Translations under genes and position numbers: made by a program
Assembly: GCA_964413735.1 (NCBI GenBank)
Contig: CAYPSS010000001.1
Location: 56,237-120,236, forward strand
Source: an uncultured Gammaproteobacteria bacterium
GTDB taxonomy: Bacteria > Patescibacteriota > Patescibacteriia > UBA11705
Length of the DNA: 64,000 nucleotides
Direction: 5' to 3'
Notes under the pieces: model-generated
Seen by the model: only the letters and a program-made list of their open reading frames with translations
Told to the model about the DNA's origin: nothing
The model's database searches: none
Shown: in pieces, positions 47,808 to 52,409 of the stretch
How positions within the stretch are numbered: position 1 is the stretch's first letter
Layout: each line of letters starts with the position of its first letter

Positions 47808-50800
47808 TTATGGAGCAACGGCAATCAGGGTGATTCCCGAAGAATATTGGTTATAAGAGTCAGTGCTTGTTGGTAGCGTGACTCTCATATATAAATTTCT
47901 GGTTTCCAGCGAAGCCACATTGGAATCAAACGATTGATAGACGTTTGGTTCACTTATTGTGCTCCAGTTGGTATTATCTTTGGAAAATTCAAGCTTTGCT
48001 TGGTTGTTGCCGGGATCAGTCCCAATAATCCAAGTGTTAACATCTTGGGTAAAATTCGATGCTTTGATATTAATATTAGCCGGTCCATTATCAATTTGAA
48101 CAGTTTCATAATTATCGCCGTTAGCCAGAGTATTTAATTCCGCTGTGCCAAAAGCCATGGCTCCATCGGTGGTTAAGGTAATGGAAATCGCGGCCGCGGA
48201 AATTGTCGCTTCCGGATAATAATCATAAGTAAAATAAGTTGTACTGCCGGCATTGGTTAGTCGGAAACAATAAGTGGAATTATTCCCGGCATTTTCTGTG
48301 GCGATAATTGAATATTCTATTTCCGTAAATTGAGTATTGGTTAAACTGATATTTCCGGTTTGCGCAGAAGTGTCTTTTTGTTCACCGGCTACAAAAGAAC
48401 TATTGGCATCTGTTAATCCCCCGCTAACATTGGTGGTGGCTGAGCCATCGGTTAAATTTGTGGTGTTGTACATTTCCCATGCTTCGGTTGTGGCTGACGC
48501 TGGGACTTGAGTCCAACTGGAAATAGCTGAACAAGTGGTGCTCTTTTCGCCAAATTCTAATCGATAATTATAATTCCCGGTTGTGGTACCGGTATTGGCA
48601 ATGGCAATTCTTAAACGCACTTCACTGTTTGGTGTTAAACTGGTTAAAGAAGTATTCTCATCTTCCAGCCAAGTGGCGGTAGTTTCCGATCCATTGTCAT
48701 CACGCCATCTAAAGCTCGTTTGTTGAACATCAGGAGGAGGAATCATCCAGGCTGCATATCGATAAGTAATGTTAAGAGAATTTACTGAAGCATGTGTTCC
48801 TATTTGAAAACCATCAGTTTCAAATTGTTGGATGGCATTGGCGAGGTTAGCTGTCGCCATGTTATATTGGGTTAAATCACCACTTAAAGTATCCGAGCGA
48901 TGAACACCGCCGGTTGTTCCGGCATGTTTAATTGTCACCCAAGAAGGTTGAAAGCCCACACCGGAAATACTTCGATTATCTTGACCATCACCAGTATAAG
49001 TCCCAACTTGCATTTTACCGGTTGTTGATTTGAACGCAATATAAAAATAAGTTGTTCCTAATCCATTTACCACATCGCTTGATCCTAATTGAAAGCCGTT
49101 AGTCTCTATCGCTTGAATTAAATTGGCCGCTTCAGCGGTTCCGGCAAAATATGAAGTTAAATCACCTACCATTGAAGAATTTCGAGAAACGGCAAAACGA
49201 GCGGTATTGTTTGATTTTATGAGAACATAATCAGGTTGAAATCCTACGCCGGAAAATGAATAATTATCAATCCCTGTTCCGGTATAGAAGCCAGTTTTAA
49301 AATTGGTTGATCCGGAATTGGCAAAAGCAATATAGCGGTAAGTTACACCATTGGTATTGACATTGGCATTTGTTCCAATTGAAAAGCCATCGCTTGTTAA
49401 TGTGGAAATACCGCCCGTGAAATTTACTACCGCATAAGCAGCGGCCGACGTGGTGGCATCCATTAAATCTTTTGTTTTAAAAACCAAACTACCGGCATTA
49501 GTATCGCTTTTAATGAAAACTACATCGGGCTGAAATCCCAACCCGGAAATTGTTTGAGCTACTCCGGTGCCGGAATAACTACCGGTCTTCATTAAATATT
49601 CTCCGGTTGGTGTGTCGTCAGTTTCGCCTTTAATAGCAAAATAATAAAAATCAGAAGTATTATTATTTACCATGGCGTTGGTTCCGATTTGAAAGCCGTC
49701 AGTTTCCAAAGATTGGATTAAATCAGTGGTGATGGCGGTAGCAGTTAATAAGCCTGAAACCTCACCATAATATCGATTGGTTTTGAATACTTTATTTTGA
49801 GCACTGGTGCCGGTCAAAACAAAATCCGGTTTAAAACCAACACCGGAAATAGATCGATTATCTGTGGTATTTCCCGTATAAGTGTTAGTATAAAATTGAT
49901 TAGTCGTATTTTTGAATGCGACAAATTGGTACAAAACATAATTGGCATTAACATTAGCTGATGAACCGACCTGGAATCCATCAGATAAGATTGATTGAAT
50001 GTTATTAGCGGCCGAGGCGCCATTGCTGAATAGTTGAGAAATATCACCACTCATGCTGGAACTTCGCCAAACAGCGGTGTCATTTCCTTTAATAATAATA
50101 ACATCCGGTTGAAATCCCAAACCGATTAAATTACGATTATCATTGCCATTACCCATGTATAACCCAGAAATATAATTAGTTGAAGTATTTCCTTGAAAGG
50201 CGATCCATTGGTAACCGGCGTTTAATTGGTTGACATTGTTAGAGTCATGAACAACAAACCCGGTATCAGTTAAATTGGTAACATAATTATTGGCCGCTGC
50301 CCCGGAAACCAAAAGAGAAGATAATGATGCTTCAGCCATATCTTTTTGCGCCCAGACAAAAGAACCATTGCCGGTATCGGTTTTAATGAATAATAAATCC
50401 GGACGGAAACCAACGGCATTGACTTCTCGACCAATAGCACCGTTTCCCATATAAGAGCCAGTTTTCATGGTAAAGTTCCCTGACTTTTCTGTTTCTGCTT
50501 GCCCATCAAAAGCCACATAATAATAAGTTGATCCTGATTGATTAGCAGTTGCATCACTTCCAACAGTAAAGCCAGAATCAGAGAAAGATTGAATAGCGTT
50601 TTCAATTGGGATTAGTCCATTATAAAAAACAATCGAAACATCAAATATCATTTTGCGAAAACGTTGAATCGCCGACCGGGTATCAGATTGTTTGATAAAC
50701 AGCCAATTAGAATTAAAGTCTAAATCAGCAAGGGCACGATCATCGTTTCCATCTCCAGTGTATGATCCAACATGGAATTTACCACTGGTATTTTTAAATG

Positions 50801-52409
50801 CAATATAAATAAAGCGATTGATATTAGCATTAACAGATGCATGATTTCCCAAGACAAAACCATCAGAGGTTAATTGCTCAATCATATTTGTTCCATTGGC
50901 CTCTGCATTAAAAGCTGAGGTAGTATCTCCAGTCATTGCAGAAGTTCGAAATCTTGCTGTTTGAATATTACAACAGATTTGAATATTTTTCACCATCACA
51001 AAGTCTGGTTGAAAGCCTAGCCCTGAAACTTCACGGCCATCAATGTTATTACCAGTATAAACACCCATGGAAAAATTATTACTATTATTCAAATTACCAA
51101 TAGCAATGAAATGATAGGGGGTATTTGCATTGTTGGTATTTAACCCAGAAATTAAAGTAAACCCATCTTCGTCTAGGGTCATTCCTGTGGCTATAATACC
51201 ATTAGCATTAGAAAACATTGAGTAAAATTCAGGAAATAAAGAGGTAGTAAAAATTGTTGTGCCTTGGTGATTACCACTTTTTATAATAACAATGTCAGGT
51301 TTAAAGCCAATCCCAGTAATTGCTCTGGTGGCTGTACCGCTACCCACATAATTCCCCTCATAAATACTAAAAGATTCAGTTTTTTGTTGTTCTTGGTAGG
51401 CAATTGCTAAATAATAATAGGTGCCACCACTAGCGTTAACGGTTGAGGATGTTCCTATTTGAAAGCCAGTTGATAAAAATGATTGGATTTGATCAGTCGT
51501 CTGAGCAACAGCTGTAAAACCCATCGATTGATCTCCATAATGTTTATTAGTCCGCATTATAGCTATTTCAGTGGTTGATTGTTTGATAAATACAAAAGAT
51601 GGTTGAAAGTTTGGGGCAGTTATATCTCGATCATCTGTTCCATCACCAGTATATGTTCCTTCAGCAAAAACTCCTGCCGAATTAGTGAACGCAATATAAT
51701 AATAGGTTGTTCCAGAATTGTTTACTGTTGCGTCAGTACCAACCTGAAAACCGTCAGTAATTAATGATTGAATAATATTAGCGGTTGATTCTGAGTTGCC
51801 AGAAAAAAACTGGGTGATTTCATTGGCCATTGAACTTGATTTCCAAACTGCTAATTGAGCAATATCACCCTTGATAATTACTGTGTCAGGATTAATTCCA
51901 AGTCCTGTAATATTGCGACTATCATTTCCGTCGCCAGTATATGATCCAATTACTATATCTGAGGCATTATTAGTGTATATGGCAATCCATTGATATATTG
52001 CTAGTGAGGCGTTGGTATTAGTGTTTGTTCCAATGGAAAAACCATCACTATCCAAAGAAGTAATGCCACCACTAAAATTAACATCAGCATTGGCAAGAAA
52101 AGCAGTTGCATCTCCTGCCATGTCAGTAGTCTTAAAAACTGCTTGGCCATCAGCTAAGTCAGATTTAATAATTATAATATTTGGTTCAAACCCAACTCCG
52201 GTAATGGCGCGAGCAATCCCATTTCCCACATAAGAGCCGGTAGCAATTTGAGCATTGGTTGCCTTTACTCGAGGTATTTGCCAATTACTATGATTGAGAA
52301 AAGAAGGTAAGATCCCGGAAAAAATAAAAAAAAGAGTAACAATCATTAAAGTAAAGTAAAACAAAAAAGTTTTTTTATTTTTCATATTTATTTTTTTATA
52401 GTATAGCAA
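47808..52409 (-). CDS. Giant surface protein with 12 tandem repeats of about 97 aa plus a distinct C-terminal domain of about 330 aa
   Basis: 1533 aa; N-terminal signal anchor; each repeat has G[ST]Y[TVM]G[DNT]G...R.I.G[LV]GF.PD.V.IK followed by ...DGFQ[VIL]G...VN...Y[YQ][YW]IAF; DNA-level period about 291 bp. Confidence 0.6.
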   Translation of the reverse strand: MLYYKKINMKNKKTFLFYFTLMIVTLFFIFSGILPSFLNHSNWQIPRVKATNAQIATGSYVGNGIARAITGVGFEPNIIIIKSDLADGQAVFKTTDMAGDATAFLANADVNFSGGITSLDSDGFSIGTNTNTNASLAIYQWIAIYTNNASDIVIGSYTGDGNDSRNITGLGINPDTVIIKGDIAQLAVWKSSSMANEITQFFSGNSESTANIIQSLITDGFQVGTDATVNNSGTTYYYIAFTNSAGVFAEGTYTGDGTDDRDITAPNFQPSFVFIKQSTTEIAIMRTNKHYGDQSMGFTAVAQTTDQIQSFLSTGFQIGTSSTVNASGGTYYYLAIAYQEQQKTESFSIYEGNYVGSGTATRAITGIGFKPDIVIIKSGNHQGTTIFTTSLFPEFYSMFSNANGIIATGMTLDEDGFTLISGLNTNNANTPYHFIAIGNLNNSNNFSMGVYTGNNIDGREVSGLGFQPDFVMVKNIQICCNIQTARFRTSAMTGDTTSAFNAEANGTNMIEQLTSDGFVLGNHASVNANINRFIYIAFKNTSGKFHVGSYTGDGNDDRALADLDFNSNWLFIKQSDTRSAIQRFRKMIFDVSIVFYNGLIPIENAIQSFSDSGFTVGSDATANQSGSTYYYVAFDGQAETEKSGNFTMKTGSYMGNGAIGREVNAVGFRPDLLFIKTDTGNGSFVWAQKDMAEASLSSLLVSGAAANNYVTNLTDTGFVVHDSNNVNQLNAGYQWIAFQGNTSTNYISGLYMGNGNDNRNLIGLGFQPDVIIIKGNDTAVWRSSSMSGDISQLFSNGASAANNIQSILSDGFQVGSSANVNANYVLYQFVAFKNTTNQFYTNTYTGNTTDNRSISGVGFKPDFVLTGTSAQNKVFKTNRYYGEVSGLLTATAITTDLIQSLETDGFQIGTNAMVNNNTSDFYYFAIKGETDDTPTGEYLMKTGSYSGTGVAQTISGLGFQPDVVFIKSDTNAGSLVFKTKDLMDATTSAAAYAVVNFTGGISTLTSDGFSIGTNANVNTNGVTYRYIAFANSGSTNFKTGFYTGTGIDNYSFSGVGFQPDYVLIKSNNTARFAVSRNSSMVGDLTSYFAGTAEAANLIQAIETNGFQLGSSDVVNGLGTTYFYIAFKSTTGKMQVGTYTGDGQDNRSISGVGFQPSWVTIKHAGTTGGVHRSDTLSGDLTQYNMATANLANAIQQFETDGFQIGTHASVNSLNITYRYAAWMIPPPDVQQTSFRWRDDNGSETTATWLEDENTSLTSLTPNSEVRLRIAIANTGTTTGNYNYRLEFGEKSTTCSAISSWTQVPASATTEAWEMYNTTNLTDGSATTNVSGGLTDANSSFVAGEQKDTSAQTGNISLTNTQFTEIEYSIIATENAGNNSTYCFRLTNAGSTTYFTYDYYPEATISAAAISITLTTDGAMAFGTAELNTLANGDNYETVQIDNGPANINIKASNFTQDVNTWIIGTDPGNNQAKLEFSKDNTNWSTISEPNVYQSFDSNVASLETRNLYMRVTLPTSTDSYNQYSSGITLIAVAP

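Follow-up and report, generated by a model that had tools for sequence, protein, structure and literature searches.

The minus-strand gene at positions 47808 to 52385 of the 64,000-nucleotide (nt) stretch of DNA analysed here (the window), from a probable Patescibacteria bacterium and so presumably an ultrasmall one, encodes a protein of 1525 amino acids (aa) which, judged by its sequence, consists of four DUF7483 units of three repeats each, not of 12 equivalent repeats. Its C-terminus has a free-standing paralogue encoded next door, and the two genes belong to a six-gene operon that recurs in other Patescibacteria. The best reading of its role, and the one that on balance we favour, is a Sec-exported adhesin that would display several knobs at the cell surface on a scaffold encoded in the same operon. 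The open reading frame (ORF) of a first-pass annotation, 47808-52409 with 1533 aa, has correct coordinates and lies on the minus strand; this longer form begins with TTG at 52409. The form beginning with ATG at 52385 has 1525 aa and is 100% identical to a database protein (P0001). The ATG is the likely start, and residues are numbered from it here. Along the gene we distinguish the following features.

47808..52385, minus strand: gene for the 1525-aa DUF7483 protein (ATG at 52385, stop codon at 47808-47810)
52260..52385, minus strand: N-terminal signal peptide or signal anchor, aa 1-42 (hydrophobic core aa 7-30)
51369..52250, minus strand: DUF7483 unit 1, aa 46-339 (repeats 1-3)
50472..51368, minus strand: DUF7483 unit 2, aa 340-638 (repeats 4-6)
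49596..50471, minus strand: DUF7483 unit 3, aa 639-930 (repeats 7-9)
48735..49595, minus strand: DUF7483 unit 4, aa 931-1217 (repeats 10-12)
48195..48734, minus strand: CT1, aa 1218-1397, a beta-rich module with the motif 'RWRDDNGSE'
47811..48194, minus strand: CT2, aa 1398-1525, a beta-sandwich domain with a paralogue in the downstream 167-aa protein

The first-pass annotation had described 12 near-regular, moderately diverged repeats of about 97 aa, and a single-repeat hidden Markov model recovered all of them, back to back and without gaps from aa 46 to 1217. They start at aa 50, 147, 243, 344, 441, 540, 643, 741, 834, 935, 1032 and 1128, with a spacing of 93-103 aa and pairwise identities of 21-52%, and the two conserved blocks that had been proposed for each repeat are both reproduced by the consensus of 84 family repeats (VGsYTGnG.DnRsITGvGFQPDLV.iK ... 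IQsL.SDGFqVGtna.VNtng.tYyY.AFk). Absent from that earlier description was the grouping of the repeats in threes, which gives four units of ~295 aa. Within the protein, mean identity between repeats is 39% at offsets of 3, 6 and 9, compared with 32-34% at the other offsets (permutation p = 0.00025), and longer linkers follow repeats 3, 6 and 9. The grouping extends to the family. When 28 units were cut into 84 repeats, the nearest neighbour from another unit was the repeat of the same position there in 81 cases. Among 120 homologous proteins (P0001-P0120), on which all our repeat and unit counts are based, 106 gave end-to-end, in-register matches to a profile of the four triplets of the window protein, and 115 have 6, 9 or 12 repeats, that is, a multiple of three. 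Since in-register units, same-position nearest neighbours and multiple-of-three counts are found family-wide, the triplication is older than the spread of the family. As a separate observation, contiguous runs of exactly six repeats are the commonest in the 120 homologues (107, versus 14 runs of three and 16 of twelve), and their dominance hints that a pair of units may form a higher-order module; the repeat identities of the window protein show no clear period of 6.

The repeat had been described as being of an unrecognised type, and this did not hold: the protein is a member of a known, uncharacterised family and not a new kind of repeat. It matches Pfam DUF7483 (PF24299) with 235.4 bits (E 1.2e-69; gathering threshold 27 bits) in 10 stretches, far beyond chance, and DUF7483 is the only Pfam family in it. 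The 330-position model represents one three-repeat unit, and the best stretch aligns aa 50-330 with model positions 8-327. DUF7361 (PF24060), whose 95-position model represents a single repeat (gathering threshold 29.5 bits), gave no match at E <= 1 in the window protein; it matches the orthologue P0002 at 36.3 bits and P0013 at 42.8 bits. CT1, CT2 and the operon lie outside both Pfam models. With PHROG profiles, the protein matches phrog_24898, 'tail fiber protein', in 9 stretches (E 8.3e-77, 259.8 bits) and, second, phrog_19943, 'virion structural protein' (E 5e-64), and NCBIfam yielded no match for it or for its two nearest neighbours. A match to a well-characterised family, which the first-pass annotation had named as the finding that would make the repeat ordinary, did not turn up, DUF7483 being catalogued but uncharacterised. 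A literature search on DUF7483, DUF7361, PF24299 and PF24060 found no paper, sequence and profile searches of the PDB with the protein, the unit and the C-terminal region gave no meaningful match, and no solved structure was found for any member of the family, profile search included.

AlphaFold2, run on unit 1 with 28 aligned units, yielded a confident model of a compact, all-beta unit (predicted local distance difference test, pLDDT, 94.3; predicted template-modelling score, pTM, 0.92; all five models above 92.9) in which a repeat consists of some eight short strands plus a helix of one turn. Because pTM is high, the three repeats appear to be held rigidly against each other, and the solenoid or propeller proposed in the first-pass annotation is not indicated by this compact triplet. 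Over its entire length the unit also matches independent BFVD models of phage proteins (TMq 0.73-0.87). Long PDB alignments (166-184 residues of the unit), all of them weak, were obtained only with TNF/C1q-type trimeric beta-sandwich knobs, including engineered single-chain trimers (4zch, 5kca, 5hzf and 4dou). As entries of this type alone align at length, an arrangement of three beta-sandwiches around a threefold axis is suggested, and we read the modelled unit as a putatively closed, single-chain 'knob' in which three small beta-sandwiches surround a pseudo-threefold axis.

The family is widespread. Searched against 1.84 billion cluster representatives (50% identity), a profile found 20,907 matches at E <= 1e-3 and 12,924 at E <= 1e-10. 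In species-representative genomes, 146 candidate stretches encode a relative, and the 79 loci kept are all from uncultured lineages: Patescibacteria, represented by Magasanikbacteria, Saccharibacteria, Dojkabacteria/WS6, Parcubacteria, Falkowbacteria and Paceibacteria, and besides these Margulisiibacteriota, Saganbacteria, Omnitrophota, Planctomycetota, Chloroflexota, Acidobacteriota, Verrucomicrobiota, Actinomycetota and others. Two units per protein are commonest and four are typical of proteins of the Patescibacteria type. The bacterial fusion partners of DUF7483 include sorting tails of the type IX secretion system (T9SS), Big_5, FlgD_ig and fn3 domains, and peptidases M23 and C25.

Phages carry the module too. 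The 18 phage records that match come from pelagiphages (HTVC204P and HTVC121P among them), cyanophages, a Methylophilales phage and a Roseobacter phage, and in 15 of the 18 the homology spans a whole unit, with 25-34% identity and 93-96% coverage. The T7-like cyanophage SS120-1 has the unit in its virion structural protein CYYG_00029 (781 aa), of which it makes up the last 295 aa; this protein comes after the internal virion proteins, the position of gp17 (tail fibre) in T7. In Synechococcus phage S-CBS2 the module is in gp033, annotated 'tail fiber'. These marine phage tail-fibre and virion proteins share both whole-unit sequence homology and predicted fold with the unit in the window, and receptor binding by the phage module is putative. 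They differ from the window protein in that SS120-1 and S-CBS2 have a single unit in a virion protein, whereas the window protein has four units behind a signal peptide and is encoded in a cellular operon without phage genes. It may be added that SS120-1 encodes, a few genes downstream of the unit-bearing gene, a separate 'C1q domain-containing protein' (8786-9373 in NC_020872.1, our locus L004), so that a classical three-chain trimeric C1q knob is encoded near the single-chain DUF7483 one.

Outside the DUF7483 units, the 1525-aa protein has one hydrophobic segment (aa 7-30) and no second membrane segment. This single N-terminal segment, together with two Cys of CT1 that are invariant in six aligned orthologues (P0001-P0006), bears out the earlier description of a surface protein. 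A candidate cleavage motif, V-K-A|T, follows the hydrophobic core, with Ala42 invariant among orthologues, and the signal peptide would be cleaved there. The C-terminal part is indeed distinct and rich in Thr (16%) and Asn (10%), as the first-pass annotation had it, and in Ser (10%), and its length is 311 aa instead of about 330. CT1, the first of its two modules, has no Pfam family; its AlphaFold2 model has a pLDDT of 95.3, and it recurs in ~30 Patescibacteria proteins of ~400-450 aa, for example from Azambacteria. The next gene downstream encodes the 167-aa protein, with which CT2 is homologous (E 1.8e-9). CT2 was seen fused to a passenger (DUF7483, LamG, fn3, Gly_rich_2 or an S8 peptidase) in 13 other proteins, and in every one of them it is at the extreme C-terminus. 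The 167-aa family itself has no Pfam model and comprises more than 120 small proteins, nearly all of ~170-180 aa; most are metagenome proteins, and every member that carries an organism name is from Patescibacteria. Its gene adjoins that of a 197-aa protein in each of the eight genomes whose neighbourhood was examined. In three genomes other than those of the cassettes described below, the 167-aa gene is likewise followed by one for a 197-aa homologue and accompanied by that of a different protein ending in CT2.

In the window, the DUF7483 gene is the first of six on the minus strand, followed in this order by the genes for the 167-, 197-, 348-, 307- and 560-aa proteins, with successive gaps of 75, 2, 9, -13 and -43 nt.

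47229..47732, minus strand: 167-aa secreted protein, free-standing CT2 paralogue
46633..47226, minus strand: 197-aa protein with signal peptide, Ig-like domain and C-terminal membrane helix
45577..46623, minus strand: 348-aa protein with N-terminal hydrophobic segment, Cys-rich module, Ig-like (Big_6) domains and C-terminal dockerin
44666..45589, minus strand: 307-aa protein with N-terminal cohesin-related domain and C-terminal membrane helix (family cross-matches with the 560-aa protein)
43026..44708, minus strand: 560-aa protein with cohesin domain, Ig-like domains and C-terminal membrane helix, encoded by the last gene of the operon

A terminator-like hairpin after the upstream transfer RNA (tRNA) gene divides that gene from the DUF7483 gene, and the G+C (GC) content of the cassette is native (37.2%, the rest of the window having 35.4%). 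All six genes constitute an operon conserved in Patescibacteria: orthologues with 30-50% identity occur in the same order, between unrelated flanks, at the loci L001, L002/L003 and L006 (Candidatus Magasanikbacteria), and partial cassettes stand beside DUF7483 genes in Parcubacteria, Saccharibacteria, WS6 and another metagenome-assembled genome (L019, L021, L025 and L036); at L025 the DUF7483 gene has genes like those of the 348-, 307- and 560-aa proteins next to it. The placement of the gene at a cohesin/dockerin cluster by the first-pass annotation agrees with the Pfam matches of its neighbours, namely Cohesin in the 560-aa protein (29.9 bits, cut-off 24.1) and Dockerin_1 in the 348-aa protein (23.0 bits, cut-off 22.9). 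The 307-aa protein has no Pfam match of its own, and it is cross-matches between the two families that link its N-terminal domain to the cohesin of the 560-aa protein. As in cohesin-dockerin assemblies of the cellulosome type, the operon encodes a dockerin protein, a membrane-anchored cohesin protein and a second, cohesin-related membrane-anchored one; unlike in these, it has no glycoside hydrolases, and the DUF7483 protein itself has neither domain. An observation that stands on its own concerns the Cys-rich segment CGNWLVEDGEECD...C in the N-terminal ~90 aa of the 348-aa protein, after its hydrophobic segment, which is conserved as a separate module beside 197-aa homologues at three other loci (L021, L036 and L087) and presumably resembles Cys-rich repeats of the myxobacterial type.

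Two known systems invite comparison with CT2 and its paralogue. In WxL/Csc clusters of Firmicutes, a C-terminal domain is common to large 'cargo' proteins and to small free-standing paralogues, and both are encoded beside a membrane-anchored Ig-like protein. The set formed by CT2, the 167-aa and the 197-aa protein has the same logic in a different host lineage; compared by Pfam only, WxL, DUF916 and DUF3324 gave no match in the C-terminal region or the 167-aa family (E <= 1) or in the 197-aa protein (E <= 0.1), and at best the CT2 cassette may work like a WxL/Csc cluster by analogy, not being a member. The second comparison is with SCPU/Csu chaperone-usher pilins and two-domain tip adhesins. 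Here the score of CT2 and the 167-aa protein against SCPU (E 0.39) is tied with that of an unrelated Sm protein and is at the level of a generic Ig-like fold. The CT2/167-aa system has no chaperone or usher gene. A donor strand, if there were one, would be an N-terminal extension that is ambiguous in the alignment, in which the free 167-aa proteins have, compared with fused CT2, ~10 extra residues (V-T-x-T-V-T) after the signal peptide and linker residues share alignment columns.

How these parts could work together may be pictured as follows. Sec would export the DUF7483 protein to the cell surface, and the three ~97-aa beta-sandwich repeats of each unit would come together as a rigid knob with three lobes, the single-chain counterpart of the trimeric knobs of phage tail-fibre tips and of TNF/C1q proteins. 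Strung together as a short beaded stalk, four such knobs would most likely bind a ligand on the surface of another cell or of a substrate, with a glycan or an envelope component as the probable candidate. We infer ligand binding because marine phages carry the module in virion proteins, as at the C-terminus of the SS120-1 protein in tail-fibre position, and because other bacteria fuse it to secretion tails and to cell-wall or protein hydrolases. CT2 would act as an attachment or assembly module, tying the protein to a co-encoded surface scaffold. This may be made up of the 167-aa protein, the Ig-like 197-aa protein with its membrane anchor, and the proteins that bear cohesin or dockerin domains. 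The surface fibre or adhesin of the first-pass annotation is, on this evidence, plausible.

Several points weigh against the adhesin reading. Ligand binding and the mode of anchoring are deduced from homology, fusion partners and gene neighbourhood, and the same goes for which end is anchored and for a contact of CT2 with the neighbouring proteins. The 'tail fiber' labels of the phage proteins stem from annotation rather than from experiment. By Pfam, the DUF7483 protein contains no cohesin or dockerin, so that its link to the three proteins that carry such domains is one of gene neighbourhood only. Finally, the hydrophobic segment at the N-terminus is long and might stay uncleaved as an anchor, in which case the orientation proposed above would be reversed.

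A bolder version of the adhesin reading, which we put forward tentatively and regard as doubtful as it stands, is that CT2, the 167-aa protein and the 197-aa membrane protein make up an undescribed, Patescibacteria-wide display or fibre system. Diverse passengers would carry a pilin-like (SCPU-like) domain strictly at their C-terminus and be attached by it to a polymer or scaffold built from the small paralogue, giving a chaperone-usher-independent 'pilus with tip adhesin', whose tip would here consist of four single-chain copies of a phage-type receptor-binding knob for host recognition by an episymbiont.

Of the roles that compete with an adhesin, the one with most in its favour, albeit an unlikely one, is that of a structural part of the envelope, for instance a subunit of an S-layer or sheath, in which the knobs would tile or space the surface without a specific ligand and the lattice would consist mainly of the abundant small paralogue. 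A protein that is large, secreted, rich in Thr, Asn and Ser and devoid of a catalytic domain would suit this role, as would a 167-aa family that is widespread and mostly free-standing and an operon with several membrane-anchored Ig-like proteins. However, the module also occurs in phage virion or tail-fibre proteins, its fusions to hydrolases and T9SS cargo in other phyla better fit a targeting or binding module, and the number of units varies among homologues (2, 3 or 4). We consider it improbable, more so than an envelope role, that the protein is released without anchoring and, once in the medium or on a host cell, acts as a binder or carries effectors, with CT1/CT2 as its functional head. 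Its C-terminus has no recognisable wall- or membrane-anchoring motif, and CT1 is a mobile module of many otherwise unrelated small secreted proteins, which would agree with release; yet CT2 is always C-terminal and always encoded beside a membrane-anchored partner and a free paralogue, in the manner of anchoring or assembly tags.

Two further possibilities concern the shape of the protein and the origin of the gene. The repeats are regular and contiguous, the structural model covers a single unit and its closure is putative, all of which might speak for one continuous superhelical rod of 12 repeats, solenoid- or propeller-like, in place of four closed knobs. We hold this to be very unlikely, given repeats that differ by position within the unit (81/84), repeat counts in multiples of three (115/120), longer linkers after every third repeat, a Pfam model that covers three repeats and phages that carry single three-repeat units. 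That the gene is a phage tail fibre, left in a prophage or remnant between tRNA genes, as its PHROG and phage tblastn matches, the tRNA genes flanking the cassette and the GIY-YIG gene with duplicated tRNA fragments just downstream might suggest, is essentially excluded, since the five cassette genes that follow in the same orientation gave no match to capsid, terminase, portal or integrase families, the upstream neighbours are RuvB and other cellular genes by inspection (tRNA genes and DnaN are also in the vicinity), the GC content is native, the protein begins with a signal peptide, other genomes have the six-gene cellular cassette between different flanks and the family is present in dozens of bacterial phyla.

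Some other features of the window deserve mention in their own right. On the minus strand at 12263-16544, six tandem paralogous genes encode proteins of 124-142 aa; two of them that were scanned match T4SS_pilin (PF18895) at 45.5 and 40.3 bits, and the other four are similar by eye only. This array is followed by the gene for a 510-aa protein in which a Big_2 Ig-like domain is fused to a C-terminal T4SS_pilin domain, another passenger in the same genome with a pilin-type C-terminal domain. The pilin array is of the type of the candidate phyla radiation (CPR), to which Patescibacteria belong, and it is this array together with the closest relatives that makes the window look like Patescibacteria DNA. 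The GIY-YIG nuclease gene (42238-42555, minus strand; 105 aa; PF01541, 59 bits) has on either side one copy of a perfect direct repeat of 39 nt (42212-42250 and 42539-42577), which is the 5' part of tRNA-Leu(taa) at 42147-42234, and it looks like a mobile endonuclease insertion beside a tRNA. Abutting the same tRNA-Leu(taa), a 204-nt segment is tandemly duplicated at 41735-42142 (98% identical), which yields two artefactual ORFs whose translation is internally repeated. At 42690-42900, an 84-nt unit is repeated 2.5 times with 98-100% identity, and because tRNA-Gly(gcc) at 42881-42956 has its 3' end (…GCTCCA) in every copy, these repeats are partial tRNA copies of the kind left by site-specific insertions.

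Genetic work in one cultured Saccharibacterium has identified several surface 'adhesins', a dockerin-domain protein among them, as essential for epibiotic growth (PMC10633639). The essential dockerin protein of Southlakia, SEML1_0315, was considered for membership in a similar cassette and set aside, its gene (927 aa) being a stand-alone one. A literature search on Patescibacteria with cohesin/dockerin or tail fiber found nothing specific. To our knowledge, and within the literature searched, the reading of the three-repeat unit as a knob, the link between phage tail fibres and CPR surface proteins, and the conserved cassette with a C-terminal tag and its free paralogue are new. Host recognition and attachment by Patescibacteria are little understood beyond type IV pili, and DUF7483 is a very large family common to marine phage tail fibres and bacterial surface proteins. 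The putative single-chain knob, the conserved cassette and the C-terminal tag with its free paralogue may serve as testable handles on this domain family and on CPR surface biology.

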